63,984 nt of DNA, filler included, from Malassezia furfur (GCA_052055015.1; 9 parts of 9 records of this genome joined end to end with filler, not necessarily neighbours in it); one strand, 5' to 3'; numbered from the whole stretch's first letter, positions 1 to 63,984 are shown. The notes: generated from the sequence alone by a model not told the origin. Made by a program: numbers and translations.

Positions 1-820
1 CGCGCTGGGCCGCGTGCGCCGTGCCTTGGGCTCCGGCCACGCGTTCTGCCGCGGCGTATCGCGCGCGCCGCGCGTGTTGGTCGAGGCACGCAGCGGCGCG
101 GCGGCGCGCTCTTGGTCATGAGCTACGTGCGAGCGCGGCATGTCGCTCACCGTGACAGTCTCGTGGGAGTGACTGCCGCTGCCCGTATGCGTGTCGGCCT
201 CGCGCGCACGCATGGGTGCGCGGTGCGGCGTGCGGGGTGGCGGGGGTGCGTCGTCGGCGATGGACGATGCGAGTTCGTCGACGCTCGCGCCATACCCGTG
301 CGCGCGGGTGCTTGGCGACACGCTCGACGAGTGCAAGCTGGCGGTCTCGGCGAGGGTGCCGTCCATGACCTGCTCGGCGACGTCGCCGCTGTATGCCTCG
401 AGCTCGGCCATAAGCGTGATGGCCTGGGGCCGGTCGCTGAAGCGGCGGAGCACCTTGAGGACGCTCTCGATGTACAGCTGCTTGGCGTCCTGCTGGGTGT
501 AGCCGCGCTGGCTTTCCCATGCGTCCCTGGGTGAGCGGTGTGCACACGCACCATTTGGCGCGGCCGAGCATGTCAAACATGCCGGGCCGCCGCGAGTCGA
601 CGTCGCCATGGGTCGCTGCGTGAGTGCGGGGGCGCGCGTACCTTGTTTATAGAGCCTGGGTCAGCCGGCGCGGCGATACGTACCCATACAGCGCGAGCTT
701 CTCCTCGTACGACGTCTGGATCGCGCCCGTCGGCGGCAGCGACTGCACGATGTCGACCGTGCGCTCAAAGAGCCTGCGTCAGCGCACCACGTACGCGTCA
801 ATCACGCGCGCACTGCTCAT
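1..820 (-). CDS. Acyl-CoA-binding (ACBP) domain protein with a long C-terminal extension, ACBD5/Atg37-like; 4 introns; 3' end runs off the window start
   Basis: Not in the ORF track. Splicing GT..AG introns at 774-794, 656-683, 616-641 and 527-551 gives MSSARVIDALFERTVDIVQSLPPTGAIQTSYEEKLALYGLYKQATHGDVDSRRPGMFDMLGRAKWDAWESQRG, which contains the ACBP motifs LYGLYKQAT..GD..RPG.FD...RAKWDAW. The frame stays open to position 1. Confidence 0.88.
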
Positions 821-894
821 CCCCAACCGTCGGCCGTGCAGCGTCGCGAAGCGGCGCGTGCCCCGATGACTAAGCGTACGGGTTCTTCCCAACC
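821..894. promoter_or_regulatory. 74-bp divergent spacer between the ACBP gene and PEX3 start codons (probable bidirectional promoter)
   Basis: ATG at 820 (minus) and ATG at 895 (plus) face away from each other. Confidence 0.55.
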
Positions 895-2554
895 ATGGCC
901 CCCGGACCAGCGCCGCGCCGGATATGGCTGCGCCGCGGCCTGAACGTCGTGGCGATCACGACGGGGCTCGTCGGCGGGCTCTACATGCTTGCACAGTTCA
1001 CGCTCACCAAGCTCAATGAGATGCAGGAGCGCTTCCTCCGCGACCGCGTCGCGCGCGAAAAGTACGTGCCCCAACATCTCACGCAGCCTGCGCCGCCGCT
1101 TCCTGCAGAACCAGGAGGACTGCACGTTCACCATCATGGCGCTCCTCCCTACGCTCTCCACGCAAATCTTCCAGGAGATGGACGTCGAGGCGACGCGCCA
1201 GGAGCTCAAGCAGGTCATCGACAGCGCCAAGGAGGCGCCCAAGGTCGCTCCTGCGCCCGAACCCGCGCCGGCGCCAGCGGCCTCCGAAGAGGAGCCGGTG
1301 CGCGCGGCGCATACCACGCACACGATCGGGAGCGCCAAGGCGCCCGACGCAGCGCCGAGCGACGGCGCGCCCGCCGCATCCACGGCGCCGAAGCCCAAGG
1401 CCGGCCTCGATCGCCTGTCCGAGGCGCCGCCGCCGCCCATCTCGTCCGAGGCACGCCTGCCGAAGCCCTCGGCAGCGCAGCAAGAGGACGCACCCGCGCC
1501 CGCGCCTGTGCCCACACCGCCCGCGCCTTCTGACGAGGACCGGCGACAGACCAAGCTGCGGCTCTGGAACGAGATCAAGCTGCAGTCGTTTTCCCGCACA
1601 TTCACGACGCTCTATACGCTTGTCTTCCTGGCGCTGCAGACGCACATCCAGCTGAACATGATCGGGCGGCGTGCGTACCTCGCGGCGCTCGAGTCGCAGG
1701 CGCAGCACGAGTTCCGCGACACGCAGGCCGACCGCGGCGAGAAGGAGAAGCACCACATTGCGCTGCACGACGCGTCCAACCTGCACATCAACGCGCAGCT
1801 GCTCACGGATGACGACGATGCCGTCGGCAACGCTTTGCTCGACCAGGACACCGAGAAAAAGTACCTCACCTCCTCGTACTGGTTCCTGCACCACGGCTGG
1901 AAGACGATCGCGACGCGCGTACAGCGCGCGGTGCAGGCCGAGATGGGCGAGATGCCGCTGCGCACCATTTTGACCTACCACCACTTCCAGGGCGCCATGG
2001 ACCGCATCCGCGAGCGGCTCGAGCATGCGGACGGCAACGAGGATGTGCTTGCGTCCAGCGACGCGTTCCTCGGCAGGCACGGTTTCCGCAACCTGCTCCT
2101 GCCCGAGAGTGTGGAGGACGAGTGTGCGATGCTCGCGAGTGCGGGCGCCATCCTCCCGGATACCCCGACGGACGAGGTGCTGACGCCCCAGCTACGGGCG
2201 CTCCTGGACGAGACCAAGGACTATATCGACTCGCCCGACTTTGCGCGCGTGTTCCGCGTGTCGTGTGACCGCGTGTTTGAGCTGCTGATGCAGCACCTTG
2301 CGCCGTCGTTTGGCGTGCAGTCGGCGCCCGACGACCTGCTGCACGGCACGGCGGACGCGCGGCATCGCGCGCGGGCGCTGGCCGCCGAGAAGCCGCTCGA
2401 GCTCGCGCGTGTGCTTCCGCTCGTGGCGCTGCAGGCGCAAGTCGCCTTCAACACGTCGCCGAACGAGTACGTTGAGGCGATCACCGAGTCGCGCGAGCTG
2501 CGCGCGTTCAGTGTGCTGATGTACACGGCGTGGGGCAGCGACGTGACGCCATAG
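895..2554 (+). CDS. PEX3: Peroxin-3 (peroxisomal membrane biogenesis), 1 intron (1062-1086)
   Basis: N-terminal basic stretch plus TM segment (RRGLNVVAITTGLVGGLY). Removing the 25-nt intron gives ARENLRRRFLQNQEDC. Also KLRLWNEIKLQSFSRT, HIQLNMIGRRAY, LLDETKDYIDSPDF and ELRAFS, all typical of fungal Pex3. Confidence 0.93.
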
Positions 2555-2643
2555 ATCCGCCGCCACGTGCGCACCAGATCGGGGCGTGCAGCCGGCAAAC
2601 TTTTTTTTTTTTGGCGGCGCGCGTGCCCTTTCTTTATTGCAGG

Positions 2644-5600
2644 ATGTCCATGAGTGCGCCGGTGCAAGCGCTGCTCGAGAGCAGCTCAAGTGCCGATGCG
2701 CATCTGGCAGCCGAGAAGCTGGCCGAGTATGTAAATGAGCAGGGCCTGCGCGTGACGGCGCGCGAACATATCCTCGACACGCTGGTCGAGCGCCTGCGCT
2801 CGAAGAAGTCGGCGAGCGACCGCGAGCGTGCCGCGATTGGGCTCGGTGCGCTCGCGACCAAGGTGGGCGGCAAGAATGCGCCGATGCCGAACGGCGCGGA
2901 GCCGTGGCTGGGCGTGGCGCTCGTGCCGCTCCTCGAGAACTACGCGGACAAGAACGACGCCGCGAAGAAGGCCGCCGAGTCGGCCGTGTCGGCGCTCGCG
3001 GCGCTGTACCCCCCCGAGGCGATCCCCGAGCTGCTCGACAACCTGTACCTCGTGATCAAGTCGAGCAGCGTCAAGTGGCAGGCGAAGGTCGGCGCGCTCA
3101 AGGTCATGTCGCGCCTCGCCGACCGCGCGTTTGAGCAGGTCGGCGACGAGCTCGCGCACATGACGCCCGTGCTCACCGAGGCGATGCACGAGACCAAGGC
3201 CGAGGTGTCGAAGCAGGCGATCAAGACCGCGACGAAGGTGTGCGGTGTGATCGACAACAACGACATCCGCCCCTTCATCCCCGACCTGGTCGGGTGCATG
3301 GCCCGGCCCGATACGGTGCCCGAGTGCATCAAGAAGCTCTCGTCGATCACGTTTGTCGCCGAGGTGACGGGCCCCGCACTGGCGGTCATGGTGCCGCTGC
3401 TGAGTCGTGCGCTGAACGAGCGCAGCCAGACGGTGCAGCGCCAGTCGGTGATCATCGTGGACAACCTGTGCAAGCTGGTGCGCGACCCCCACACGGCGGC
3501 GACCTTCCTGCCCGAGCTGTACCCTGCCGTGAAGCGCATCGAGGAGGGCGCGAGCTTCCCTGAGGTGCGTGAGCACGCCAAGAGCGCCGCGGACACGCTG
3601 CGCACCGCGTTCGACGCCGCCGAGTCGAAGAAGCAGACGGTGGATCCCGCGCAGGCGCAGCGGCGCGCGCGGCATGCGGCGCTCAAGGCGCTGGCCGGTG
3701 CGGTGCAGTCGCACATGCCCGAGGGCGTCGAGGCGATGAACGACGCGTGGACGCTCGTGGGCCTGGAGTACGTCGCGCGCCTCATTGTGCGCCTGGCGGA
3801 CAAGCGCATGGTGCAGGCCGAGGCGTGGAACGACGTGTATGTGCTGCCGTACGTGCGCCGGATCACGGCGACGCCCGAGGGCGCGCAGGCGGCGACGGAC
3901 GCGGTGCGTGCCGAGTACGTCAAGCTCGACACGGAGCGCTTCGGGCAGCCCGAGGACGACGACGCGGACATTGAGGGCGAGCAGCTGTGCAAGACGGTGT
4001 TCTCGCTGGCGTACGGCGGTCTGCTCCTGCTGAACCACACGATGCTGCGCCTGCACCGCGGGCACCGCTACGGCATTGTCGCCGCGAACGGCAGCGGCAA
4101 GTCGACGCTGCTCAAGGCGATGCGCGACGGCAAGGTCGAGGGCTATCCGCCGCCCGAGGAGGTGCGCACGGTGATGGTGGAGCACTCGCTCCAGGGCGAG
4201 GACGGCTCGAAGCCGATCCTCGACTTTGTCGCCGAGGACAAGCAGCTCGCGCACAAGACGCGCGAGCAGGTCGCCGAGGCGCTGCACTCGGTCGGCTTTG
4301 ACGACGAGCGCCAGAGCAACCCGGTGGGCAGCCTGTCGGGCGGGTGGAAGATGAAGCTGGAGCTTGCGCGCGCGATGCTGATCGGCGCCGACATCCTGCT
4401 GCTGGACGAGCCGACGAACCACTTGGACGTGGCGTCGATCGCGTGGCTCGAGCAGTACCTCGTGAACAACAAGGACATCACCGTGCTCACCGTGTCGCAC
4501 GACTCGAGCTTCCTCGACAACGTGTGCACGGACATCATCCACTACGAGCACAAGAAGCTCAAGTACTACCGCGGCAACCTGTCGGCGTTCGTGAGCAAGC
4601 GCCCCGAGGCCAAGTCGTACTACTCGCTCGCCGCGACGTCGGTCAAGTTCTCCTTCCCGCCGCCCGGCTCGCTGATGGGTGTGCGCTCCAACACGCGCAC
4701 GATCCTCAAGGCGTCGCACGTCACGGTGCAGTACCCTGGCATGTCGCGCCCGTCGCTCGTTGACGCGTCGGTGAGCATCTCGCTGTCGAGCCGTGTCGGT
4801 GTCATTGGCCCGAACGGTGCCGGCAAGTCGACGCTGATCAAGGTGCTCACCGGCGAGATCGTCCCGACCGAGGGCAAGGTCGAGAAGCACCCCAACCTGC
4901 GTGTCGCGCTCATGGCACAGCACGCGTTCCACCACCTCGAGCAGCACCTCGAGAAGACCGCGTGCCAGTACATCACCTGGCGCTACCAGGACGGCCACGA
5001 CCGCGAGATCACCGAGAAGGTCACGCGCAAGCTGTCCGAGGAGGAGGCGCGCCAGATGGAGACGCCCATCGTCTCCACCACCGGCGAGAAGCGCAAGGTG
5101 GAGTTCATCGTGGGCCGCAGCAAGCTCAAGAAGAGCTTCCAGTACGAGATCAAGTGGGTCGGCATGGACCACAAGTACAACACGTGGATCCCCCGCGAGC
5201 GCCTGCTCGAGCTCGGCTTCTCGAAGCTCGTGCAGAAGTTTGACGACTTCGACTCGTCGCGCGAGGGCGCGGGCAGCCGCGACCTGAGCCAGAAGGCGAT
5301 CCGCAAGGAGCTCGAGGCGGTCGGCCTCAACGGCGAGATCGCCGAGAACAACGCCATGGCCGGCTACTCGGGCGGGCAAAAGGTCAAGGTCGTGCTCGCT
5401 GCGGCGCTATGGAACAACCCGCAGGTGCTTGTGCTCGACGAGCCCACGAACTACCTGGACCGCGAGGCGCTCGGTGGCCTCGCGGTCGCGATCCGCGAGT
5501 GGGGCGGCGCGGTGGTGATCATCTCGCACAACAACGAGTTCATCTCGGCGCTCTGCCCTGAGATCTGGCGTGTGGAGAACGGGCACATTGTGTCGAAGAC

Positions 5601-5901
5601 GAAGACGGACGTGGCCACGGAGAACTTTGCCGAGGACGGCGCGCCCGCCTCCGAGACGCCCTCAGAGGCGACGCCCGCGCCGAGCGCGCTCCCCAGCGCG
5701 GTCAACAGCGCGGTCAACAGCGGCGCCAACACGCCCGCGACGCAGTCCGACGACGAGGACATGTCCAAGCTCAAGGCCAAGAAGGGCAAGAAGAAGCTCA
5801 CACGCAACGAGAAGAAGGCGCAGGAGGAGCGCCGCCGCCTCCGCCTCAACCGCTGGCTGCAGTACGGCGGCGAGCGCGAGCCCGACACGGACGACGAGTA
5901 G
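2644..5901 (+). CDS. NEW1: eEF3-family ABC-F translation factor, New1/Elf1 type (HEAT, 2 ABC domains, chromodomain insert)
   Basis: Two Walker A motifs (NGSGKST, GPNGAGKST), LSGGW and LLLDEPTN. EHSLQGEDG, FPPPGSLMGVRSNTR and the tail KKLTRNEKK..ERRRLR..WL..DTDDE fit New1/Elf1 better than Yef3. First ATG at 2644. Confidence 0.88.
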   Translation: MSMSAPVQALLESSSSADAHLAAEKLAEYVNEQGLRVTAREHILDTLVERLRSKKSASDRERAAIGLGALATKVGGKNAPMPNGAEPWLGVALVPLLENYADKNDAAKKAAESAVSALAALYPPEAIPELLDNLYLVIKSSSVKWQAKVGALKVMSRLADRAFEQVGDELAHMTPVLTEAMHETKAEVSKQAIKTATKVCGVIDNNDIRPFIPDLVGCMARPDTVPECIKKLSSITFVAEVTGPALAVMVPLLSRALNERSQTVQRQSVIIVDNLCKLVRDPHTAATFLPELYPAVKRIEEGASFPEVREHAKSAADTLRTAFDAAESKKQTVDPAQAQRRARHAALKALAGAVQSHMPEGVEAMNDAWTLVGLEYVARLIVRLADKRMVQAEAWNDVYVLPYVRRITATPEGAQAATDAVRAEYVKLDTERFGQPEDDDADIEGEQLCKTVFSLAYGGLLLLNHTMLRLHRGHRYGIVAANGSGKSTLLKAMRDGKVEGYPPPEEVRTVMVEHSLQGEDGSKPILDFVAEDKQLAHKTREQVAEALHSVGFDDERQSNPVGSLSGGWKMKLELARAMLIGADILLLDEPTNHLDVASIAWLEQYLVNNKDITVLTVSHDSSFLDNVCTDIIHYEHKKLKYYRGNLSAFVSKRPEAKSYYSLAATSVKFSFPPPGSLMGVRSNTRTILKASHVTVQYPGMSRPSLVDASVSISLSSRVGVIGPNGAGKSTLIKVLTGEIVPTEGKVEKHPNLRVALMAQHAFHHLEQHLEKTACQYITWRYQDGHDREITEKVTRKLSEEEARQMETPIVSTTGEKRKVEFIVGRSKLKKSFQYEIKWVGMDHKYNTWIPRERLLELGFSKLVQKFDDFDSSREGAGSRDLSQKAIRKELEAVGLNGEIAENNAMAGYSGGQKVKVVLAAALWNNPQVLVLDEPTNYLDREALGGLAVAIREWGGAVVIISHNNEFISALCPEIWRVENGHIVSKTKTDVATENFAEDGAPASETPSEATPAPSALPSAVNSAVNSGANTPATQSDDEDMSKLKAKKGKKKLTRNEKKAQEERRRLRLNRWLQYGGEREPDTDDE

Positions 5902-5950
5902 ATAGCCCCGCAGTGCGTCCGGCCGTTTCGACCACGTGACCCTTTCGACG

Positions 5951-7235: not shown

Positions 7236-7335
7236 NNNNNNNNNNNNNNNNNNNNNNNNNNNNNNNNNNNNNNNNNNNNTTAATTAATTAANNNNNNNNN
7301 NNNNNNNNNNNNNNNNNNNNNNNNNNNNNNNNNNN
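7236..7335. other. Artificial contig linker N44-TTAATTAATTAA-N44
   Basis: 100-nt N run with a 12-mer giving stops in all six frames; identical at all eight junctions. Confidence 0.97.
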
Positions 7336-14556: not shown

Positions 14557-14656
14557 NNNNNNNNNNNNNNNNNNNNNNNNNNNNNNNNNNNNNNNNNNNN
14601 TTAATTAATTAANNNNNNNNNNNNNNNNNNNNNNNNNNNNNNNNNNNNNNNNNNNN
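14557..14656. other. Artificial contig linker
   Basis: N44-TTAATTAATTAA-N44. Confidence 0.97.
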
Positions 14657-15349: not shown

Positions 15350-15455
15350 CGCGGACGTGCACGGACACCACGTGGCGTGGAGGCGCTGGGAGGTTGGACC
15401 GGCGGCGCGTCGAGGAAGCGTCGCTTGGTGCGTGTGGCTCGCTACGTGTCTACAT

Positions 15456-19390: not shown

Positions 19391-19508
19391 CGATGCGCGT
19401 GCGCGGCCGGCGGCCGCCCCCTGAATTTTTGGCGTGGCGCCATCGATCGCCCCTCCACCTACCGTCGCCTGTCCGGACGGCGCCGGATTTCACGAGCGCG
19501 GCGCGACG

Positions 19509-45432: not shown

Positions 45433-45556
45433 CGCGTCGTGCGCCGGGGGAGAAGCGTCGCGTCACGTGGCTGGGAGGGCAAAGCCGCGCGCGGTGCGGC
45501 GTGGAGAGTTCACGCTGGGCCCCCACGCGTGCAGGACCGAAGCCGAACAAGCCGCC

Positions 45557-50624: not shown

Positions 50625-50724
50625 NNNNNNNNNNNNNNNNNNNNNNNNNNNNNNNNNNNNNNNNNNNNTTAATTAATTAANNNNNNNNNNNNNNNNNNNN
50701 NNNNNNNNNNNNNNNNNNNNNNNN
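50625..50724. other. Artificial contig linker
   Basis: N44-TTAATTAATTAA-N44. Confidence 0.97.
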
Positions 50725-50744: not shown

Positions 50745-52841
50745 ATGCTCCCCAACGAGGTCCTGCTCACGCAGCAAGGTCCGCTTGCGCGGGTCTGGCT
50801 CGCGGCACACTGGGAGCGCAAGCTCAACAAGGCGCAGTTCCTCCAGACCGATATCCCGGCGAGCGTCGAGACGATCGTCGGCGAGGGCGAGGAGGACGCG
50901 CCGGTTGCACTGCGCCTGAGTGGGCAGCTGCTGCTGGGCATCGTACGCATCTACTCGCGCAAGGCCAAATACCTCGAGGATGACTGCAATGACGCCCTGC
51001 TCCGCATCCAGGTCGCGTTCCGCGGCGCGAACGCCGTCATCGACCTCTCGCACGACCAGCAAAACGTGTCGCGCGCGGCCATTACGCTGCCAGACACGCT
51101 CAGCGTCGCCGATTTGCTGATGCCCGAGCCCGCGTACGTGGCGCCCGCCGCAGTGGTGGCCGCTCATACGCGGCACTCGGCGCGGCCAGCCGACATCACG
51201 CTGCCCGACACGCAGCTCGCGTCGATGGACGTGGATATACCCTCCTACGAGCCCGACTCGCTCCTTGGCGGCGCGCTCGCAGACCTGGATACCTCGACGC
51301 AGTTCGACCTCGGCATCGAGGACGACAGAGCAGCGGCGCGTCCGCCAACCAAGCGCCCGCGCGAGTGGCGTCCGCGCGGCAGCACCTCGCGGCGGTCCAC
51401 GGCGAGCGACGCACGCCGGACCGAGACCGGCGTAGCAGATACAAGCCGCGCAGATACGAGTGTGGGCGACGCATCGCTCGCGCCGACAGATGCGGACGAC
51501 TCGTACGCTAGCGTCGGTGTGGGTCGTGACGCGTCGCTCGCGCCGGCGTCGGCCGCCGAGCATGTGCGCTCGCTGCTGGGCGACGTCGACCTGTCGATGG
51601 ACTTTTCGATGGATGCACTCGACTTGCCTACCCATACCTGTACGTGCTCTGGTACTGACGCAGCGACGCCCCCACGCCCCACGGAGCCGCCGCGCGCCGC
51701 GACACCCGTGCCCGACGTGTCGCTGGAACAGGCGATCGGCGCGCACACCGAAGCGCCGCTTACGCCGCGCACCGCCGCCAAGCTGCGGAGCGCAGCACTG
51801 GCACGCGCGGATGCCGCGCCCAAGGGACAGCGCAAGCGCCCGCTCCAGGACTCGGTCACGGACCTGGGCCGCTCGCACATGCTGCAGCTGCGCTCGGCGG
51901 CCGCGACTATGACCACGTCACCGCACGAGCTGCGCTGCCTGCCAGCGTCGCGCATGCAGCTTGCCATGCTTCTGGCGCCCAAAGACTTGGCGCGTGACGC
52001 ACAGCGCATGATGTCGATGCTGTGGGGCGCCGCGTACACCGAATATGCGCCGTCGATCGCACGGGCGATGCGCCTCGACGCACGCAAGCAGCATGCGCCG
52101 CCGCACTACGACCGGCAGCAGTGGCTGCGCGACGTGCACGACGAGGCCGTGCGCCTGAACCGCGACGAGGACGAGTTCCCGCACGAGGTCGGGCGCCGCG
52201 CATCCGATGCGCCGTGGCTCACCGAGGACGTGCGCTTTGCGGACGTGAGCAACGCAACGGCCGCCTCGCTCGGCGCGGATGCCAGCGTCGACAAGAGCCT
52301 GCCGCCCGCCGACTTTTCCATGAACGACGTGCCGGAGCTGCCACCGCTTCCCGCCCCAGACACGAGCCGCGACGCGCCGGCTGCTGCGCCGGCACAGCCC
52401 GAGCCGATGCACGAGGACGAGCCGCATGCGCTTCGCCGCTCGTCGCGCCGGCGTGCACCGTCGCCGACGCCGACAGGCCGCCTGCCCGAGGTGCGTCTCG
52501 GTACGCCCGAGGCCGAGGAGCGCGCGTGGCACCCGACGCCGGTCGCCGAGGATGCGCCGCTCGCAGCGTTTGAGACGCGCGCGCGCGAACAGCCGCGCGA
52601 CGCTTCGCTCGCGCACTGGGACGCGAGTACGCTGCAGGCGATGCACGTGCTCAAGAGCACGATGCACGACGAGCACACCACCTTCGAAACGCTCGCGCGC
52701 AGTGCGAGCCGGCGTGCGGCCGCGGGCTTCTTCTTCGAGATGCTCGTGCTCGGCACCAAGAACTGTGTGCAGCTCGAGCAAGAGGAGCCGTACGGAGATG
52801 TGGACATTACCGCCAAGCCGGCGCTCTACACTTCGCCTTAG
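50745..52841 (+). CDS. RAD21: Cohesin kleisin Rad21/Scc1/Mcd1; probable in-frame 24-nt intron at 51640-51663
   Basis: N-terminal GPLARVWLAAHWERKL..ALRLSGQLLLGIVRIYSRKAKYL..DC and C-terminal winged helix RRAAAGFFFEMLVL.T...V.LEQ.EPYGDV. Confidence 0.96.
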   Translation: MLPNEVLLTQQGPLARVWLAAHWERKLNKAQFLQTDIPASVETIVGEGEEDAPVALRLSGQLLLGIVRIYSRKAKYLEDDCNDALLRIQVAFRGANAVIDLSHDQQNVSRAAITLPDTLSVADLLMPEPAYVAPAAVVAAHTRHSARPADITLPDTQLASMDVDIPSYEPDSLLGGALADLDTSTQFDLGIEDDRAAARPPTKRPREWRPRGSTSRRSTASDARRTETGVADTSRADTSVGDASLAPTDADDSYASVGVGRDASLAPASAAEHVRSLLGDVDLSMDFSMDALDLPTHTCTCSGTDAATPPRPTEPPRAATPVPDVSLEQAIGAHTEAPLTPRTAAKLRSAALARADAAPKGQRKRPLQDSVTDLGRSHMLQLRSAAATMTTSPHELRCLPASRMQLAMLLAPKDLARDAQRMMSMLWGAAYTEYAPSIARAMRLDARKQHAPPHYDRQQWLRDVHDEAVRLNRDEDEFPHEVGRRASDAPWLTEDVRFADVSNATAASLGADASVDKSLPPADFSMNDVPELPPLPAPDTSRDAPAAAPAQPEPMHEDEPHALRRSSRRRAPSPTPTGRLPEVRLGTPEAEERAWHPTPVAEDAPLAAFETRAREQPRDASLAHWDASTLQAMHVLKSTMHDEHTTFETLARSASRRAAAGFFFEMLVLGTKNCVQLEQEEPYGDVDITAKPALYTSP

Positions 52842-55800
52842 CTACGACGTAGACACAGCAATGAGGCACGAGCCATACGGCAGCACCCACTGTGGGTTCG
52901 GCGCCTCGACGCGCACCATGCGGCCCAGGCGCGCGGCGAGCAGCGGGCGCTGGGCCGGCGGCTCCGCACACGCATCCGCCAGGCGCGCGTCGATGCTCGC
53001 GCCGATCAGCTGCTCAAGCGGCAGCGGCATCGCCTCGAGGTGTGTCGTCTTATGCGTGGGCACCGCGTCGTCGGTGCTCGGCAGGCGCATGCGCCATACC
53101 TCCCAGCGCGCTGCGCTGCGGTCCGAGTGTACCGTCGCTGCACGGCGCACGCCTAGCACCCACGCAGGCGCCGCGGGCGCAAAGGGCAGCACGTCAGCGA
53201 TGCCCCGTGCGTTCGCCCAGCTGTGCAGCAGGACGAGATGCGGCTCATTTGCATGCACGCCCACAAACCACACGCGGTTCGCCGTCGTGACGAGCAGCAG
53301 CGGCGCCGACGGCGCGCGCGACACGCGCTGGATCGAGTGCACCGCACCATCCGTACACGGCTCAGCCAGCGGCAGACTCGCGACCGGCTCGCTGTGCGGG
53401 TCGAGCCACAAGTGCAGCACGCCGTCCTGGTCGCCGGCGACGAGCCATTCTGTGTGCCGCGGTGCGGACGCCAGCCGCGGTGGCGTTATGATCGGCGGCG
53501 CCGGCGGCGTCGACGTCCCGTCCGCCTCAGCGACCAGCAGCAATGCACAACGGCACACGGCGCGCGTCTGCACACGTGCGGCGACCTCGGCACCCAGGCG
53601 CTCCTCGGCGCCCGGTGCAGACATCCGCGCCACGACGAGGTCACCCTGCGCCGACACGGCGCCGAACGCGTCGTCGTCCTGTGCAAGCGGCACGGCCGCC
53701 CAAGCGGTGTCGGATGCAAGGCACGTTGTCAGCCGGTACGCCGGCACACCGCTCGGCTCGGCCGTCTTGTGCGCCAATGCCGCGAGGTCACGCCATGCCC
53801 ACCATGCGCCGTCGCGGTGTAGCGTAAGGAGCGTCGCATGGCGCACAGTGACGTCCTGCACGGGCGCGAGCGGCCCGTCGGGCCCGCGGTGGACGTCCAA
53901 AACGAGCCGCCACGACGGCAAATGCACCACCGACACGCGCCCCGATGCCTGGCCGAGGCACACGAGCGCCTCGTCGTTGCCCACGTCGTGAACATAGAGC
54001 GCCGAGAGGCGCGATCCATCCGGGGCCGCGCCCGCGTCCGTCCGCAGCAACGCAAGCGCACACGACGTGCCGCGCTCGTCGTTCGTCGCGCGCAGCTGGT
54101 TGCAGATGTCGGCACTCACGACCCATGCGCCGTTGGCGCCCACGAGGTGCACGGGCGCGGCGTGCAACGCGTCGCTCAGCACCTCGACGTGCACGCGCAG
54201 CGACGATGCCGCGTTCTTGGACGGCTGCGGCAGCAGCGCCGAAAGCCCAGCGTCGGTCCCGTCCGATTTTTCGTGCTGCGACTCGAGCAGGTCGGTATCC
54301 TTGCGCAGGTAGCGCAGCACGCCCGACATGACCAGCATCGTCGCGGCGACGGGGCACACCACAAACAGGAACACGAGGAAGAGCGTCGCACCTTGCCGGT
54401 GGAAAAAGAGCTGCTCGAGCCACGGGCCGGGCGGCGTTCGCGCATCGGTGGGCAGCGCCGCCTGCGGCAGCGTCAGCACCGACCACGGCGCGACGCGCAT
54501 TTGTACGAGCGGCGCGTGCAGTGGGTTGATCGAGGCCCAGAACGCGCCGTACGGGTTGTCGTGCAGCGCGGTGGGCGCGATATTCGAGTCAGCGGCAACC
54601 GCTGCAAACGGCGACGAGAGCACCCGCGCAAAGAACTGTGCCACTTTGCCGTCCGACGCGTAGTACAGCACAGGCGTCAGCACCGCGGTCGCCAGCACCG
54701 ACACGCGGAACGAGCGCACGCCACGCGAGTGCAGTAGCGCATACATGCCGCTCAGTACGTACGAAATCACCGAGCGCGGGCGGTACGGCGCATGCGGCGC
54801 CGGCGGCTTGCCGGGCTCTGCCGCGGGCGTGGCCGGCGCGGCGGTCGGTGCTTGAAGCAGCACCTCGGCGAGCTCGAGGCGCTGCATGTCGATGCTCAGC
54901 ACCGTAACAAAGAAGGTCATCTGCATAAAGTAGTCAACCACCAGCGTGCAGATGGTAAACAGGCAGAACTGCAGCACCGCGGGGATCCGCACGGTCCAGG
55001 CCAAAAGCAGGAGCAGCACAATGTCCGACAGCGCAGTGAGCGTGATGGGGCCAGCCACCTGCGAGAGTCCGTATGCGATGCGCGCGTGCATCGTCAAAGA
55101 AAGAGGGGTGTTGGTAATGGTGCGGATCATGAACAGCATCGACTCGGAGCCAACCACCACGATGATAAACGGCAAGATGGACCAGGGCACGGCGTTCAGT
55201 CGGATGCCCAACAGTGCACACACGCTCAGACTCATGATCAAGTCAAGCAACAGCTGGACGCTCCCCGTAAAGGCGATACCGAACCGCGAGTGCAGCCGGC
55301 GCATCTGCACCAGCCCGCGGAAGATGAACAAGAGAAGCAGCATGTAGCCACCGGCCACCACCGAGACATTGAGTGTCGGCCGTGCGGTGAGGTGCTGCGG
55401 CTTGAACTAGGTCAGTGGGTACAACGTACGCGAAGATAAGTATCGCCCGCTTCGATGCCCGGCGGGCGCTCGAGCGCCAGGTGCCGGGTCGAGGCGACGT
55501 CGCGCACAATGTTCTCCCATGCTGCTGCTGTGCCGGGTTCATCATGCACAAAGAAGGACAGCACGAGGAATTCCGCGCGCGAAAAAAGTGGTAAGTATGG
55601 CCAACGGCTCGCGAGCGTCGTCGAATACAGCAGCGGGATGCTCGTATTGGCGTGCAGCGGCGCAACCGGCGGCGTCACCACCGCTCGCACAGGGCTCCCC
55701 GTGTAGGATTTGGCGGGGTGCCAGTCGGCCTGGACGTCGGCAGCCGTCGGCCAGTACGACAGCGGCGACAGCACGAGGCATGCGCCATCTAGCTCGTAGC

Positions 55801-56795: not shown

Positions 56796-57791
56796 ATGTC
56801 GAACCAAGGAACGAAATCGCTGGCGTTTGCCATTGCCGACTGGCTCCAAAGCAAGGAGACTGCAAGCTTCGACTCCTCGAAGCGTGAGCAGGCCGCCAAG
56901 TTGATCTGCGAGGCGTTTGACGTGGACACGTTTGATACGACACAGCGCGCGACCTACGCCAAGGGCTCGCCCGGCCTGAGTGCCATCTTTGACGTCTTCC
57001 TCAAGGCGCAGAAGAAGATGGCCCCGGCTGAGGATGCGAAGCCCGCGGCGCAGCCGGAATCCAAGGGCGTCTCGGAGGCGGACCAGGCCAAGGCCGAGGA
57101 GCTCAAGAACGAGGGCAACAAGTTCATGAGCGCCAAGGACTACGGTGCGGCGCTGAATGCCTACACCAAGGCGATTGAGCTGAATGGCGCGTCGCCCGTC
57201 TTCTACTCGAACCGCGCTGCGGCATACAGCCAGATTGGCCAGCACGAGGAGGCGATTGCCGACGCGAAGAAGGCCTCGGAAATCGACCCCAAGTTTGGCA
57301 AGGCATACTCGCGTCTCGGGCACGCGCTGTTTGCCTCGGGCAAGTATGAAGAGGCGCTGGCTGCCTATGAGAAGGGCTACGAGGTGGACCCGTCCAACAA
57401 GCTGATGAAGTCGGGCATCGACGCGTGCAAGGCCAAGGTTGCCGAGGCGCCCAAGGACGGCGCGGTGGCCTCTGCGGCGTCGCGTGGAGCGGATGCGCAG
57501 CCGGACCTGGGTGGCGGGGCCGGTATGGGTGGTGGCGGCATGCCCGATCTTGGCTCGCTGCTGAACAACCCCATGCTCTCGTCGATGGCGCAGCAGCTCA
57601 TGCAGAACGGCGGGCTGGAGCAGCTTATGAACAACCCCATGCTCCGCCAGATGGCCGAGCAGTTCGGTGGCAACGGCGGCCAGATGCCCGACATCAACGC
57701 AATGATGAACAACCCCCAGCTGCGACAGTACGTGCCCCCGATCTGACTAACCCTACAGGATGGCGCAGCAGTTCATGTCGAACATGGGTGG
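56796..57791 (+). CDS. SGT2: Small glutamine-rich TPR co-chaperone; intron 57728-57758; 3' truncated
   Basis: N-terminal dimerisation helix, TPR (AEELKNEGNK..Y..A...YTKAI..FYSNRAAAY..KAYSRLG) and Met/Asn/Pro-rich STI1 repeats (LLNNPML, LMNNPML). Confidence 0.94.
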
Positions 57792-57891
57792 NNNNNNNNN
57801 NNNNNNNNNNNNNNNNNNNNNNNNNNNNNNNNNNNTTAATTAATTAANNNNNNNNNNNNNNNNNNNNNNNNNNNNNNNNNNNNNNNNNNNN
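57792..57891. other. Artificial contig linker
   Basis: N44-TTAATTAATTAA-N44. Confidence 0.97.
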
Positions 57892-58527
57892 CCTGGAAGT
57901 CTTTCATGTTGGAGAACGCGCCGCGGGCGGCGGCGCCCGCGCCGCCGCAGACGTGGGCGTGGTCGGCGCGACGGTTGGCGCCGCGAACGTTGTCGGCGCA
58001 TCCTCGGGCGCAGGTGCAGTAGGCTGGGCAAGCATGGCATACACGACGAGCGTGCGTACGCGCTTGTGCTGTGCGTCGGACAGCTCGGCGCACTTGAGCG
58101 CAGGGAGCAGCACGCGCCCCCACCAGTCGCGGCGGAACAGGCCGACGTCGAGGAGCGGCGCAAGCATCTCGAGCACGCCGACGACCGCCATCCACGCGGC
58201 GGTCTCCGGTTTCTGTGTAGTGTGCTCGAATGCGTCGAGCATATCGGCGTGGAGCTTGTCGGCGACGGCGGTGCGCACGGCGTTGGGCGCGAGCTGGGCG
58301 CGCACCTCGGCATGCGCGAGCAGATCATCGTCGCTCGGCGGCGCATCCAGCGAGGCATCGGCGAGCAGGGCGTGCACGGCGGTGCGCGCCGTGTCGGCTG
58401 CGCCCGGCGCGCCCTTGGCAATGGCTGCGTGCACGGCCTGGGCGGCCTCCTTCACGAGGCCGAGCGTGCCGCGCGAGACATTGAGCGCGCCGAGGCCCGA
58501 TAAACTCGAGAACGACGGCGGCGGCAT
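57892..58527 (-). CDS. N-terminal part of a helical protein, probably hamartin/Tsc1; apparent frameshift near the contig end
   Basis: ATG at 58527. VLEMLAPLL....RRDWWGRVLLPALK resembles the fungal Tsc1 N-terminal W(W/F)..VL.PAL segment (recalled, not searched). Confidence 0.5.
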
Positions 58528-58645
58528 GCCGTGCGCAGCTCCTCTCTTCTCGCCACGCACAGGCGGCGGCTGCGGCGGTGCGGGGAAGAAAAGCGCGGCG
58601 TGCTTCGGAAATGGGGGCCGGCGCGGCGTCCTATCACGTGCCTAT

Positions 58646-61213
58646 CTACGCGGTCGCCGCGCCGCGGCGGGCGGGCGGCGGCGCGGCGCTCGTGGCGGCC
58701 TTCCCCGCGTCCTCTTTGAGCGAGACGATGCGGTTGAGCACGAGCTTGTCGTGCGCGGCATCGTCGCCGAACAGGGCGAGCTGGCTGTCGCGGTCCACGG
58801 CAAAGTAGCCGACGCGCATCGCCTGGAAGCGGATGCACTCCTTGCCGAACGTCGACGTCTTGACCGCCTGCAGCGCGTCGGTGTCGTGCGCGGCCTGCTC
58901 GGCACGCTCCTTGCCGAGCGCCTGCTCCGCCTGGTGCGCGGCCTGGCGCTCGCGCTCCGCCGTCTCGTCCTTGGCGCGCTGGATCGCGTGCCGCGCCACG
59001 TCGTAAAACGCCGGCTCGAGCATCGCGCCGCGGAACACCTCGCGCGAGTGCGGGTTGATGGTCGCCAGGAAGTCGTCCTCCGCCGCGGGGTTTTCGGAGA
59101 GGAACAGGTTGTGGAAGAAGCGCACCTCGTCCACGCGCACGGGGCTGCGGCTCGGCGCGTGCTCGGCCACCCACTGGATGTAGGTCTTGGGCTTCGCCTC
59201 GGGGTCGTAGCGGCACACGAGCTCTGTGACGTCGCCTGCAGCGTCGGTGCGCACGTCGGTGCAGGTGATCGGATGCGGCACCTGGTATAGCCCGACGCTC
59301 TTGCCCGGCGCAAGGCGGAAGTAGTCGGGCGCGTCCTCCGTGCGGAAATCGGAGGCGTCGATGTACACCGTGCGGGTGAAGGGCACCTTGGCGGTGCCCA
59401 TCGCAGGCACCTTGGGATGCAGCGGCTTTTCGATCTCGAGCACAAAGTCCTCGTCGAGGTTCTCGATGGTGATCTTGAGCGGCCGCACGACCATCATCAG
59501 GCGCGGCGTGTCCATCTCGAGGAACTGGCGCACGCTCTGGTCGAAGCGGTTCGTCTGGATCGTCGAGTTGTTCGTCGTGACGCCGAGTGCGCTCACAAAC
59601 GACAGGATCGCGCCGGGCGGCACGCCGCGCCGCCGCAGGCCGATCAGCGTGTACATGCGCGGGTCGTCCCAGCCGTCGACATACCCGCCGTTGACCAGCT
59701 TGAGCATCTTGCGCTTCGACAGGACCGTGCCCTCGATCGAGAGCCGGCCGTACTCGTACTGGCGCGGCTTGTACACCTCGAGCGCGTCGCACAGCCACTC
59801 GTACGACTCGCGCGACAGAATAAACTCGGTCGTGCACAGCGAGTGCGAGATGTTCTCGAAGCTGTCGACCAGGCAGTGCGTGAAGTCGTACGTAGGGTAC
59901 ATGCACCACGTCGTGCCCGTGCGGTGGTGTGGCGCATCCAGCACGCGATACGCAATCAGGTCCCACATCTGCGGGTTGCCGCTCCCGAGGATGTCCTGCT
60001 TCATGCGCAGCGTCGCCTCGCCGGGCTTGTACTTGCCCTGCTTCATCGCCTCAAAGTCGGCGAGGCTGTCCTCGACGGGGCGGTCGCGCCAGCGGCTCGC
60101 GTGGCGCGCGCCCTTTTCGGGGCCGCCGCGCTGCGCACGGATCTCCTCGGGCGTGGAGTGGTCGACGTACGCGAGGCCGCGCTTGATCAGGTCGACGGCC
60201 AGCTCGTAGAGCCGCTGGAAGTAGTCCGAGGAGTAGGTGATCTGGTACGGCTCAAAGCCGAGCCACCGCACTGTCTCGAGGATCGACGTAAAGTACTTCT
60301 CCTCCTCCGCCTCGGGGTTCGTGTCGTCAAAGCGCAGATAGCACAGGCCGCCGTGGTAGCGCGCGTAGCCAAAGTTGACCGCAATCGCCTTCGAGTGGCC
60401 AATGTGCAGGAAGCCGTTCGGCTCGGGCGGGAAGCGCGTCATCACCGACCCGTTCGTCGCCTTGAGGTGCGCGTCGCGCAGCCACGGGTGCACCTGCGGG
60501 TTTCCGCCGGGCTTGTGCAGACTCGCCAGGAAGCCCTCCTGGAACATGGCATCGGGGCCTGTGGGCTGCGTCGGCGCCGCATCCGCCTTCTTCGCGGGCT
60601 TCTTGGCCTCCTTCGGCTCCGCCTTCTTCTTCGGCGCGGCGCTGCGCGGGCCAAAGCGCTCGGTCAGCGTCGCTTCCACCGCCGTTTTGATGTCGACCGC
60701 ATTGGCCCACCGCATGGACGGATCGCTGCGCACGGCACCCATCACGGCCGACATCTTGGGCCAGCCACCGACGGACGCGAGCTCGTCGGCGTGCGCGTCC
60801 ATGTACGCCGTGACCGCCGCACGGCACTGCTCGGGCGTCACCACCACACCGACGCCGCACTGGGTATCAAAGTCGGCGTCGTCGATCGGGTCGTGCGTCG
60901 CGACGTACTGCACCGCCGTCTGGATCTGGTCGGTGGTTTTCAGGTCGCCCTTGACCACGCGCTTCACCACGTACTCGCGCGCGGCGGGCGCAAGGTCCGC
61001 GCCACTCGACGCCGCGACGACCACCGCCGAGCTCGTTTTGGCATCGAGGTTCGCCTCGTCGAGGCGCAGCGCATGGATCACCTGCTCCAGCGAACGCGCA
61101 TACTTGGCATTTTTGACCGTGTCCTGCGCACGCTGACCGGTCAGCGAGATTGTCGCAAACAGCTTCAACAGCCGCGCGACCTGCGGGTCGTTCACGTCGA
61201 GCTTCGGCGCCAT
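58646..61213 (-). CDS. GLN4: Glutaminyl-tRNA synthetase
   Basis: TRFPPEPNGFLHIGH (HIGH), LRFDDTNPEAE, YPTYDFTHCLVDS, LCTTEF, VLSKRK, WDDPR..T..GLRRRG and RFQAMRVGYF; eukaryotic N-terminal domain present. Confidence 0.97.
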   Translation of the reverse strand: MAPKLDVNDPQVARLLKLFATISLTGQRAQDTVKNAKYARSLEQVIHALRLDEANLDAKTSSAVVVAASSGADLAPAAREYVVKRVVKGDLKTTDQIQTAVQYVATHDPIDDADFDTQCGVGVVVTPEQCRAAVTAYMDAHADELASVGGWPKMSAVMGAVRSDPSMRWANAVDIKTAVEATLTERFGPRSAAPKKKAEPKEAKKPAKKADAAPTQPTGPDAMFQEGFLASLHKPGGNPQVHPWLRDAHLKATNGSVMTRFPPEPNGFLHIGHSKAIAVNFGYARYHGGLCYLRFDDTNPEAEEEKYFTSILETVRWLGFEPYQITYSSDYFQRLYELAVDLIKRGLAYVDHSTPEEIRAQRGGPEKGARHASRWRDRPVEDSLADFEAMKQGKYKPGEATLRMKQDILGSGNPQMWDLIAYRVLDAPHHRTGTTWCMYPTYDFTHCLVDSFENISHSLCTTEFILSRESYEWLCDALEVYKPRQYEYGRLSIEGTVLSKRKMLKLVNGGYVDGWDDPRMYTLIGLRRRGVPPGAILSFVSALGVTTNNSTIQTNRFDQSVRQFLEMDTPRLMMVVRPLKITIENLDEDFVLEIEKPLHPKVPAMGTAKVPFTRTVYIDASDFRTEDAPDYFRLAPGKSVGLYQVPHPITCTDVRTDAAGDVTELVCRYDPEAKPKTYIQWVAEHAPSRSPVRVDEVRFFHNLFLSENPAAEDDFLATINPHSREVFRGAMLEPAFYDVARHAIQRAKDETAERERQAAHQAEQALGKERAEQAAHDTDALQAVKTSTFGKECIRFQAMRVGYFAVDRDSQLALFGDDAAHDKLVLNRIVSLKEDAGKAATSAAPPPARRGAATA

Positions 61214-61233
61214 CGACGTCAGGGGTCACGTGG

Positions 61234-63185
61234 CTAATCGACGCGGATGTGGCTATAAATCGTCCGGACGCACACGTAGCACGCCATGAACCCGACAAAG
61301 CCAAACAGCAAAAAGTCGAGCAGGGAGAGGACGAACAGGTAGCCCAGGAAGAGCAGCTGGCTCGACATGTCGGGCAGGTTGAGGCGCGTATAGCAGTAGA
61401 AGAGCTGGGTCAGCACACACACACGTACCCCATACGCAAACAGCCAGAAGGAGCTCGAGCCACCCGTGATAAAGGCGCGCCACTGCCACCGGTAGTCTTC
61501 GGCGCACAGGTGGAAGTAGCACGCAAGGATGCTCACGGTCGCCGTTGTCTGGGTTAGTTTTGCGCGCCACGTACCGCCGCCGTGACCAAAAAGGTCATCG
61601 TCAGGAAGCCAAACGCATAGTACACGCGGTTGCCGAACAGCGAGTTGATGATAAAGAACAACTCAAGCCACGCAGCGCCAAACGGCAGGATGCCGGACAG
61701 CAGCGCCGACGGCCACGGGCGCAGGTACCACGCGGTGGGCGGAATCTGCCGCGGGATTTGGTTCACGCGCACAGGATGCGCAAACGCACCGGAGCGCAGC
61801 CCAAAGTAGGAGCCGGCGCACGACAGCGGCGCATTGATCAAGAACCACAGCGCGACAAGCGCAAGCAGCGTGCCGAACGGCACCGCTCCCGCCGAGTGGT
61901 TGTACACGAGCAGCAGGTTGAGCAAGTTCATCGCGCCAAAGATGATCGCGGGGAACAGCGTCGCGGTGAGCAGCATGTTGCGCCGCCAGCGCTCCCCGTC
62001 AAAGCTCGCGTATACCTTCGCACTCACCCACCCGGACACGAAGCCAAACAGCGTCCACGTCACGATCATGATCGTCGCCAGCGACCCGCGGTTCGACGGG
62101 CTCAGGAAACCGAGCAACGCAAAAAAGAGCGTCACGATCGCGATCGCCAGCAGCTGGGCGCCGGTGCCGGCCATGACACTGAGCAGCATCGGCGAGGTCG
62201 GCGCGCGGAACACCTCGCCGTGCACCAGCTTCCAGCCGTAGTCCTCCTGGATATCTTCGGTGAGGTCGATCGCATTGTATCGGTAAATGTCGCGGCGCAC
62301 GGCGCGCGCCATAATCAGGCCCACCATCACGCACAGCAGCGCAACGATCGCGAGCGAGTTGAGCAGCGAGTACCAGTGGATGCGCGGGTCGACGACGTGC
62401 AGGTACGCGTCCCAACGAGTGGCCCATGGCGTGCTGCTCGGCGTCCAGACGACGTCGTAGGTGTATGCAATCGGCGTCGGCGTATCGCTCGACACAAACA
62501 TGGGCTGCGTCGCATCGCACGTCACAGCGCCGCCCAGGCCATTCGGCAGCGAGTTCATCGACATCGGGATGACGTTGACGCCGACCACACGGTACTCGTT
62601 CGGACCGCGCATGTGGTACGACACATTCAGGCGGTAGTGGTTGTACAGCGCGGGCGTCGGCAGGCGGTGGAGCTCGGCATCGAGGATGCTGCCGAGCGCA
62701 AAGCCCACCGAGTTCGCGCGCACGTTGCCGTCGATGCCGGTGAGTCCGGCATCGGCGACAGGGAGGCCGTCGACCATCCAGTTGATCCCGTAGCGCTCCG
62801 TGATGCGTTCGTTCAGAAACGCCGCCTGCTCGGTCGAGACGGTCCCCTTGCACAACGTGACGCAGCTCTCGTTGCGGAGCATGCGCACTTCGATCGGGCT
62901 GTTGTAGATACGGTCTCCGAACAGGATACTGCCCAGACTGCCCGACTGGGCGTACGTGCCGTTCGGCGGCTTGCAGAAGCCGAGCCGCTCGTCGTAGTAG
63001 TCGTAACTCACCAGGCCATGCACGGGCGTCGCTCCCGACATGGGCTGCAGTGCATTCACCTGCACAGGTACCGAGTCGCCACTCCCAAACGAGCGCGGCG
63101 CACTGCCCGGCAGGTACCACGCCCACGCAGGCGCGGCCGCCGCCGCGAGGACAAGCGCCCCACGGACCACTCGCGCACCGAACAT
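61234..63185 (-). CDS. Nonaspanin TM9SF / Emp70 (Tmn) family membrane protein, 2 introns (61549-61574, 61405-61428)
   Basis: Signal peptide then WYLPG..P, SLGSILFGDRIYNSP, WATRWDAYL, IHWYSLLNS, GWKLVHGEVFRAP, RVNQIPRQIP, CAEDYRWQWRAF and the C-terminus IYSHIRVD. Confidence 0.95.
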
Positions 63186-63227
63186 CGTGTTCGGAAGACG
63201 CAGTCACGTGCGTAGCTCCACCGCACC
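63186..63227. promoter_or_regulatory. 42-bp divergent spacer with a central GTCACGTG
   Basis: Lies between ATG 63185 (minus) and ATG 63228 (plus); CACGTG at 63205-63210. Confidence 0.55.
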
Positions 63228-63984
63228 ATGGCGCTCAAGGTACGTGGGGCACCGCTTACAGCAGGTGTATTCGCTGTGGATCTTTGACCGGCACTGCGAC
63301 GCCATCTACCACCAGGACTGGTCGCACCTGTACCAGCAGGGCCCCACATCGTTTACGTCGTCCCTTGGCGCAACGCTCCAGCGCGTGGGCGCCCAGCCGG
63401 ACGGCTCCAAGCCCGACGCGGCCGCACAGGCGTTGCGCCCCGCGGGCGACGCGCTGCCAGGCGTGAGCCGCAACGTGACGCAGGACGCGACCGACTCCAA
63501 CCTTCTGCCGTTTGACCAGGAGGCGAAGCTGATTTACGGACTCGTGTACTCCCTCCGGAACCTCGTGCGCAAGCTGGGGGGGAAGCACGAGCAGTTTTAC
63601 AACTTTTCCACGTCCACGTATACCCTGTCGCACCTGCAGACGCCCTCGATGTACACATTTGTCATGGTCACAGACCCACCGCCGACGCGCAACGCCAAGG
63701 GTGCGCTCGCCAACTTTGCGAGCGCGAGCGCCATCCCTGGCACCGCCGGCATGACGCTCCGCGGCGTGCTCCACGAGATCTGGCGGGGGCCATGGGTGCA
63801 GAATGCGACGCGGCACCCGCTCGTGAACTGTACGGAGCGCGAGACGTACGAGCCACCGCTGCCGGCACCACAGGCGAGCGCGCCCGATACCGCCGAGGCG
63901 CCGGCGCCGGCGCCGCCCATGACACGCGACGAGTTGGGCGAGCGGGTGCGCCGGACGCACGGGATCGACAATGACGCGCTGCGC
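63228..63984 (+). CDS. BET5: TRAPP complex subunit Bet5/TRAPPC1; intron 63240-63264; 3' runs off the window
   Basis: Not in the ORF track. Spliced MALK|VYSLWIFDRHCDAIYHQDW, then EAKLIYGLVYSLRNLVRKL and F.TSTY.L....TPS...FVMVTDP (sybindin/longin signature). Confidence 0.9.

Follow-up and report, generated by a model that had tools for sequence, protein, structure and literature searches.

Introduction

How short a spliceosomal intron can become while its splice signals remain strong is the question raised by a 63,984-base stretch of DNA (hereafter the window), in which 11 conserved protein genes are interrupted by GT-AG units of 21–31 nucleotides (nt). A preliminary description had read these units as ultra-short introns with a fused branch point and acceptor, and had extended this reading to the whole genome. 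In the present survey, which is based on the window, on homologous proteins and on the literature, the units are very probably ordinary U2-type GT-AG spliceosomal introns of a yeast of the Malassezia furfur clade, in the extremely compact form that is typical of the genus.

The intron set and its splice signals

The final set comprises 25 introns, all of which begin with GT and end with AG (25/25), and which are distributed over 11 genes, namely those for an ACBP-domain protein, Peroxin-3, gamma-tubulin, CENP-C, OMA1, a GT15 mannosyltransferase, Rad21, a SCAP-like protein, an SGT-like protein, EMP70 and sybindin. This set was recovered independently of the preliminary description, which had arrived at the same number of introns in the same number of genes. 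The window holds approximately 30 protein genes, so that about one third of them is interrupted, and one gene carries eight introns. Intron lengths range from 21 to 31 nt, with a median of 24 and a mean of 24.16 (n = 25; 21 nt in five cases, 22 in two, 23 in four, 24 in two, 25 in seven, 26 in two, and 28, 29 and 31 in one each), and the range, the median and the count of five introns at exactly 21 nt are the same as those given before. Division of the lengths by three leaves remainders of 1, 2 and 0 in 11, 7 and 7 introns, respectively, and phases 0, 1 and 2 are represented by 9, 8 and 8 introns; hence neither length classes nor phases show a bias toward multiples of three, as would be expected of real introns.

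The donor is GTACGT in 16 introns, GTGCGT in three and GTAGGT in three, which are the three hexamers earlier named as predominant, while the remaining donors are GTACGC (two) and GTGGGT (one). The extended donor GT[AG]NGT is thus found in 23 of the 25 introns, with GTACGC in the other two, and donor position +4 is C or G throughout (25/25). Toward the 3' end, every intron contains CTNAC (CTCAC in nine, CTGAC in nine, CTTAC in four and CTAAC in three), a count that is not fully independent, as CTNAC was part of the search pattern. In agreement with the preliminary description, 20 of the 25 introns end in CTNACNYAG, with the putative branch adenosine 6 nt from the 3' end (position -6), and in the remaining five it lies at -7, -7, -8, -9 and -9. 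The acceptor is CAG in 24 introns and TAG in one. A 3' polypyrimidine tract is lacking, with just C-N-Y between the branch adenosine and the AG; the earlier statement to this effect is also borne out by the stretch from donor to branch motif, which is 71% G+C and 50% pyrimidine (n = 25). The U12-type consensus has the donor [AG]TATCCTT and the branch sequence TCCTTAAC, and TATCC is found in none of the 25 donors.

The five introns of 21 nt, which had been listed individually in the preliminary description and each of which reads as a GT..AG unit on the minus strand, consist of a donor hexamer, a 6-nt spacer, CTNAC and then NCAG. In RNA terms, the donor occupies positions 1-6, a G+C-rich spacer positions 7-12, CUNAC positions 13-17 (with the adenosine at 16) and N-Y-A-G positions 18-21, so that explicit donor, branch and acceptor signal accounts for approximately 15 of 21 positions, and whole introns are 62% G+C. 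With the adenosine at -6, an intron of this length would form a lariat loop of 16 nt, and the loop size of about 16 nt proposed earlier follows directly from this geometry.

Search and chance expectation

The strict regular expression returned 29 rows, corresponding to 24 distinct acceptors, of which 23 are real; the 24th (33861-33916, 56 nt) is located inside the small-subunit (SSU) rRNA gene and was rejected as false. Two introns with GTACGC donors (616-641 and 13980-14002) were added by means of frame breaks and homology. The non-randomness of the signals is strong, as judged by 100 second-order Markov simulations of the window. The tight motif GT[AG]NGT-N3-20-CTNACNYAG gave 20 matches at 18 sites, as compared with 0.29 on average and at most 2 in the simulations, which is approximately 70-fold over expectation, and all 18 sites fall among the 25 introns. 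For the strict motif, 29 matches were observed versus a simulated average of 7.41 and never more than 14. Without the donor constraint the motif shows no enrichment in the window (224 versus 215.9 simulated), and donor-unconstrained matches inside coding open reading frames (ORFs) were dropped, being mostly false and of a length that is a multiple of three.

These figures bear on a reading in which assembly errors, frameshifted pseudogenes or chance motifs, and not introns, account for the interruptions, and to which next to no probability can be given. The 25 interruptions follow one grammar and all lie in sense orientation within 11 conserved genes, the excess of the motif over expectation is as described above, conserved residues are restored exactly upon removal, and the same GT15 product of 381 amino acids (aa) is annotated in M. 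furfur, hence this reading is already refuted for practical purposes.

Support from homologues, profiles and reading frames

Removal restores the reading frame, colinearity with homologues or both for 24 of the 25 introns. Fifteen are supported by homologue colinearity (eight in GT15, four in gamma-tubulin, two in EMP70 and one in OMA1), with homologues that include ones from outside the genus, three by continuity of a Pfam profile (one junction each in Peroxin-3, CENP-C and ACBP), six by restoration of the reading frame (three ACBP introns, SCAP, SGT and sybindin), where strong coding frames are joined or stops arise upon retention, and one by its motif only.

The gene with eight introns encodes the GT15 mannosyltransferase on the minus strand. 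Seven of its introns were placed by colinearity with GT15 proteins, namely intron 1 (40949-40973, 25 nt, adenosine at -8), intron 2 (40551-40571, 21 nt, with an in-intron stop if retained), intron 4 (40383-40404, 22 nt), intron 5 (40350-40370, 21 nt, a multiple of three without a stop), intron 6 (40239-40261, 23 nt, with a stop codon at the exon-intron junction if retained), intron 7 (40128-40152, 25 nt, with an in-intron stop if retained) and intron 8 (40027-40049, 23 nt, with the GTGGGT donor). Intron 3 (40492-40512, 21 nt) is likewise a multiple of three and free of stops, and the 7-residue insert that it would encode is present in none of nine homologues (0/9). Between intron 4 (22 nt) and intron 5 (21 nt) lies a micro-exon of only 12 nt (40371-40382, minus strand), which encodes H-F-W-T and thereby part of the motif HFW[ST]NFE, found in eight of the nine homologues, the annotated M. 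japonica protein being the sole exception. When all eight introns (40027-40973) are taken out, nine fragments become one ORF of 381 aa, which is free of gaps at all junctions in alignment with nine GT15 homologues, which derive from Malassezia, Pseudozyma, Moesziomyces, Rhodotorula, Nakaseomyces and Lichtheimia. GLX27_003748, as annotated in M. furfur, is also 381 aa long and colinear with the 8-intron model.

The gamma-tubulin gene, also on the minus strand, has four introns of 29, 23, 25 and 21 nt, and their removal yields a protein of 452 aa that is colinear with full-length homologues. Intron 1 (14186-14214, adenosine at -9) was placed by tblastn and by an alignment that is colinear at residue 74, intron 2 (13980-14002, GTACGC donor) by colinearity at residue 135, and intron 3 (13086-13110, adenosine at -7) by colinearity and by an in-intron stop if retained. 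Intron 4 (13000-13020) is a multiple of three and has no stop; its removal generates a Tyr codon as well as the C-terminal D-Y-I-S-G that is conserved in the homologues, whereas its retention would add seven residues that the homologues lack.

The same gene offers a comparison within the genus, as a Malassezia-like metagenome contig of 49% G+C (L001) carries gamma-tubulin introns of 29 nt (2265-2293), 24 nt (2477-2500) and 25 nt (3405-3429), as well as a 36-nt candidate in a neighboring gene (947-982, minus strand). The 29-nt intron occupies the position of intron 1 of the window and the 24-nt intron that of intron 2, so that two of four positions are shared with the M. furfur clade, while intron 3 is absent and the last intron is slightly displaced. 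In the three gamma-tubulin introns of the contig the putative branch adenosine is at -7 or -8. Short introns would therefore be a genus-level trait, with the clade studied here at the short, tightly anchored end.

In the remaining homologue-supported genes, OMA1 (an OMA1-like M48 peptidase) has one intron of 25 nt (36821-36845, minus strand), identified by alignment with homologues; the spliced C-terminus (W|LPxAE...C) matches OMA1 of Ustilaginales and Cryptococcus, whereas the read-through frame fails to align. The EMP70/TM9SF gene on the minus strand has a first intron of 26 nt (61549-61574), across which the Pfam EMP70 profile continues from positions 1-462 upstream to 465-505 downstream and the product is colinear with nine homologues, and a second intron of 24 nt (61405-61428), which is a multiple of three without a stop and whose retention would add eight residues that are missing from 9/9 homologues.

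Profile continuity was found at the Peroxin-3 intron (1062-1086, plus strand, 25 nt), with profile positions 2-46 encoded upstream and 48-457 downstream, and at the CENP-C/Mif2 intron (28391-28412, minus strand, 22 nt), with CENP-C_C positions 1-34 upstream and 36-85 downstream. The ACBP-domain gene on the minus strand combines this kind of support with restoration of the frame, and its spliced ORF is open over all four junctions. Intron 1 (774-794, 21 nt, phase 2) has a GTACGT donor, ends in CTGACGCAG and contains an in-frame TGA if retained; intron 2 (656-683, 28 nt, phase 2) restores the frame upon removal and, if retained, is followed by a stop two codons past its end. Intron 3 (616-641, 26 nt, phase 1, GTACGC donor) was missed by the strict expression and came to light through a change of frame from one end of the stretch 552-655 to the other, and the ORF spliced at this site is continuous. 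Intron 4 (527-551, 25 nt, phase 2) separates an exon that encodes Pfam ACBP positions 32-53 from one that encodes 55-76.

Three further introns were placed by the reading frame. In the SCAP-like gene with its sterol-sensing domain, an intron of 23 nt (55407-55429, minus strand), which has the TAG acceptor and an in-intron stop if retained, links two open stretches, of 379 and 854 codons, that are out of frame with each other. The SGT-like gene with tetratricopeptide repeats (TPR) has an intron of 31 nt (57728-57758, plus strand, adenosine at -9), indicated by frame restoration and an in-intron stop, and its downstream exon reaches a masked stretch of N after approximately 11 codons. The sybindin/TRAPP intron (63240-63264, plus strand, 25 nt) has frame support only; the downstream exon begins at profile position 1, and an ATG and three codons abut the donor upstream, giving a first exon of four codons.

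In five cases (13000-13020, 40350-40370, 40492-40512, 51640-51663 and 61405-61428) the reading frame stays open when the intron is retained. It could thus be argued that some of these stop-free candidates of a length divisible by three stay in the mRNA, always or part of the time, and are translated into short inserts, which would concern chiefly the element in the Rad21/Rec8 gene (51640-51663, plus strand, 24 nt), where the ORF remains open upon retention and the evidence is a perfect GTACGT...CTGACGCAG motif. We consider this very unlikely, as four of the five are contradicted by homologue alignments without the insert, while the Rad21 element perfectly matches a motif expected 0.29 times per window, and only three of its eight in-frame codons end in G or C, as compared with a fraction of 0.82-0.85 in the flanking exons.

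Completeness of the set and points that weigh against it

A map of coding segments was made without the use of splice motifs, and in this map every exon junction in the window is explained by the set, none requiring a longer intron. Six further exon junctions proposed by the map were inspected and rejected, with no plausible intron at any of them. As none of the 25 introns exceeds 31 nt, longer ones probably make up less than about 11% of all introns (95% bound, from 0/25).

Several points weigh against the reading of the 25 units as a representative set of ordinary introns. The branch adenosine is a putative one, located by the CTNAC motif. The term genome-wide, as used in the preliminary description, extrapolates from one 64-kb window, and it is from sequence that we infer splicing in this organism. 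The Rad21 element (51640-51663) is an unverified candidate that was proposed by its motif. As both searches started from the motif, the figure of 20 out of 25 introns with the adenosine at -6 could be somewhat inflated, and short 5' exons or atypical introns could have escaped detection; the coding-segment map argues against missed introns, within the limit that its codon statistics were trained on the same window.

Proposed mechanism of splicing

In ordinary U2-type splicing of such units, almost the whole intron would be splice signal, consisting of a 6-nt donor (mostly GUACGU), a spacer of 6-13 nt, CUNAC and, usually, N-Y-A-G. Excision from the RNA would proceed by intron definition, to which the 12-nt micro-exon points. 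The strong donor would be recognized by U1 and then by U6, and CUNAC by U2, presumably together with SF1/BBP. As just three bases separate the putative branch adenosine from the AG, there would be no room for an interaction of the U2AF65 type with a pyrimidine tract, and the acceptor would be the first AG past the adenosine, 3 nt away, chosen by proximity rather than by a pyrimidine tract. That five introns measure exactly 21 nt and none is shorter suggests a steric floor of approximately 15 nt for the distance from the donor G to the branch adenosine.

Parts of this geometry could also be taken to mean that the spliceosome of the lineage has been remodeled for a sterically minimal substrate, through loss or truncation of U2AF/Mud2, alteration of SF1 or changes in the small nuclear RNAs, which would make it a distinct splicing variant. 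The absence of space for a pyrimidine tract, with 3 nt from adenosine to AG in 20 of 25 introns, the floor of 21 nt, the micro-exon of 12 nt between introns of 22 and 21 nt, and C or G at donor position +4 in 25/25 introns are all in keeping with such a variant; C or G at this position would mismatch the usual pairing partners in U1 and U6. However, the donor and branch motifs are strong and canonical in form, as standard recognition by U1 and U2 requires, and PRP38, the only splicing factor encoded in the window, is intact with a full-length Pfam match. Moreover, anchored branch sites without a pyrimidine tract are described for Yarrowia, Trichomonas and Giardia in the available part of a comparative study (PMC2483917), and a remodeled spliceosome is thus unlikely, though somewhat less so than the translation of introns as inserts.

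Consequences for gene annotation

The preliminary description had also proposed that many genes are mis-annotated, which holds in part, as three proteins from sister species are wrong, whereas the single M. furfur protein checked (GT15) is correct. The three wrong proteins were seen among Malassezia-named homologues of three aligned genes. The M. japonica GT15 protein (P0004) is without the four residues of the 12-nt micro-exon; the frame survives when all 55 nt around the micro-exon are taken out as a single "intron", and this is probably how these residues were lost. The M. nana gamma-tubulin protein (P0099) lacks exon 1 and 20 internal residues, and in the M. yamatoensis OMA1 protein (P0360) eight additional residues (V...LTQ) stand where the intron lies, as though an intron of 24 nt had been retained. 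A fourth deposited protein, P0359, is listed with P0360, P0099 and P0004 and likewise appears mis-annotated at ultra-short introns. The gene calls P0086, P0087 and P0356, from metagenomes or assemblies, run through introns and thereby acquire false C-terminal tails, and such read-through calls, which seem to be intron-blind, give rise to chimeric Malassezia "proteins" in protein databases.

In practice, gene finders and RNA aligners that are used on the M. furfur clade need a minimum intron length of 20 nt or less and a tolerance for micro-exons, as short protein segments are otherwise lost or gained. Retained phase-0 introns are translated as V...LTQ inserts (GTN...CTNACNCAG), and this signature provides a quick screen of protein databases for such cases.

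Source and neighboring features of the window

The assignment to nuclear DNA of a M. furfur-clade yeast follows from two genes. The longest GT15 exon (40574-40948, minus strand) has its best match in the M. furfur protein GLX27_003748, with 97% identity, followed by matches in M. obtusa (78%) and M. japonica (69%), and the OMA1-like peptidase (36846-38138, minus strand) shares 87% identity with a protein of M. brasiliensis and 86% with one of M. furfur. Identity to annotated M. furfur proteins varies by gene, with 86% for OMA1 as against 97% for the GT15 exon, and the lineage or species of the window may, within the M. furfur clade, differ from the annotated strain.

Outside a single block of low G+C content (29.6-36.4 kb), the window is approximately 66% G+C. 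A reading of this block as a centromere was dropped, since it corresponds to a ribosomal DNA (rDNA) unit on the minus strand, with the large-subunit rRNA gene at 29570-32958, the 5.8S gene at 33334-33487 and the SSU gene at 33698-35491. This single complete unit (29570-35491, about 50% G+C) is located between the CENP-C and OMA1 genes and is flanked by unique genes, with no further repeats alongside, so that either the array is collapsed or its edge is inside the masked stretches of N. Sixteen masks of 44 N form eight pairs with a period of approximately 7.2 kb (7236-7335, 14557-14656, 21810-21909, 29034-29133, 36247-36346, 43451-43550, 50625-50724 and 57792-57891) and interrupt several genes; among the sites affected are the SGT-like gene, in its 3' exon, and the boundary between a Cu-ATPase gene and Hobbit.

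The PRP38 gene (44446-45462, minus strand) is intronless and is the sole spliceosome component encoded in the window. Neighboring genes on the same strand may be separated by only 10-60 nt or so from stop to start, as is the case for EMP70 and the glutaminyl-tRNA synthetase gene (GlnRS; 61225-61246, minus strand), for GlnRS and the next ORF (58611-58649, minus strand) and for EF3 and a WD40 gene (5898-5927, plus strand), which implies overlapping untranslated regions or very compact promoters. Seven strongly coding ORFs carry no assigned function (14807-15352, 17714-19363, 41476-42327, 42708-43448 and 58033-58611 on the minus strand; 17106-17585 and 43578-44291 on the plus strand), and a Pfam scan of four of them, over 17588-19489, 41419-42483, 42705-43448 and 43551-44315, gave no match.

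Comparison with known systems

Short introns are an established feature of Malassezia, as the preliminary description had noted. A review of the genus mentions "very short introns" (PMC7426719), the 5350 introns of M. sympodialis average 30 bp and are supported by RNA sequencing in 99% of cases (Zhu et al., 2017; PMC5389616), and the median in M. restricta is 30 (Cho et al., 2022; PMC9241646, Table 1). For the annotation of M. restricta, a minimum intron length of 20 was set in BRAKER and a min_intron_len of 15 in AUGUSTUS (Cho et al., 2019; PMC6473144). The introns of the window belong to the same compact architecture of the same genus, yet with a median of 24, a mean of 24.2 and a floor of 21 they are approximately 6 nt below the means and medians published for these two species, and anchoring of the branch at -6 is not described in the available sections of the M. 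sympodialis and M. restricta papers. Since the annotated GLX27_003748 equals the 8-intron model, the GT15 introns are already contained in public annotation. What is seen here is therefore the documented compact gene architecture of Malassezia at its short extreme, and a refinement of known biology rather than a new kind of system.

In the literature on Malassezia introns and splicing, we found no paper that gives a mode of 21-25 nt, a floor of 21 nt or the CTNACNYAG anchor, although the intron-size supplement for M. sympodialis may show a similar distribution. The word "intron" is absent from the main text of the papers on M. furfur hybridization, on the genomics of the Malassezia mating locus and on centromeres, and the available text of a survey of introns in fungi, M. 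sympodialis among them, makes no mention of ultra-short introns (PMC8476143). RNA-seq data for CBS 14141 exist as a BioProject, which is cited in PMC9040865. A 2026 paper on introns below 30 bp names ciliates, microsporidia and dicyemids in its introduction, and "Malassezia" occurs nowhere in its text (PMC13644364). It is possible, with a chance that we put somewhat below even, that among free-living, culturable and genetically tractable fungi the M. furfur clade has the shortest introns known and those most densely packed with signal, with a genome-wide mode of approximately 23-25 nt, a hard floor of 21 nt (6 for the donor, 6 for the spacer, 5 for the branch motif and 4 for the remainder), the branch adenosine anchored 3 nt before the AG, and micro-exons down to 12 nt by pure intron definition. 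If so, the clade would be a convenient model for minimal lariat geometry with fully canonical signals, and recent surveys of introns below 30 nt would have overlooked it.

A branch point anchored to the AG in the absence of a pyrimidine tract is a state already known to have arisen convergently; it is found in Yarrowia lipolytica, at a distance of 2 nt, and in Trichomonas vaginalis and Giardia lamblia, at 4 nt, according to the available part of that study (Irimia and Roy, 2008; PMC2483917), and in Trichomonas the branch site is described as fused with the 3' motif, with type B introns of 23-25 nt (PMC12316389). The fixed distance from adenosine to AG and the missing pyrimidine tract are thus common to these lineages and to the window, where the distance is 3 nt (20/25), and a basidiomycete is added to the lineages with such anchoring. 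In contrast to the window, where about one third of the genes is interrupted, one of them eight times, and all introns found measure 21-31 nt, Yarrowia, Trichomonas and Giardia are described in these sources as intron-poor, with mostly longer introns (a median of 204 nt in Yarrowia; 56-196 nt for type A introns in Trichomonas). The branch motif also differs, as its middle base is degenerate here (CTNAC), while a strict CTAAC is reported for these three. A further likeness is to the green alga Ostreococcus, whose genome is described as compact and GC-rich, and whose intron sequences as highly constrained, in the available part of the comparative study (Irimia and Roy, 2008; PMC2483917).

In length, the introns overlap with those of Paramecium (20-34 bp, average 25) and of the Bigelowiella natans nucleomorph (18-21 bp), as far as given in the available sections of two reports (PMC6009652; bioRxiv 10.1101/2021.08.05.455221). 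The nucleomorph introns are described as AU-rich with no discernible branch point, and Paramecium as having reduced splicing signals (PMC6009652). Unlike these, the introns of the window are 62% G+C and carry a strong CTNAC, which sets them apart from the signal-poor, AT-rich class. A lariat loop of 16 nt could thus coexist with donor and branch signals that are strong and canonical, in contrast to the signal-poor tiny introns of nucleomorphs and ciliates.

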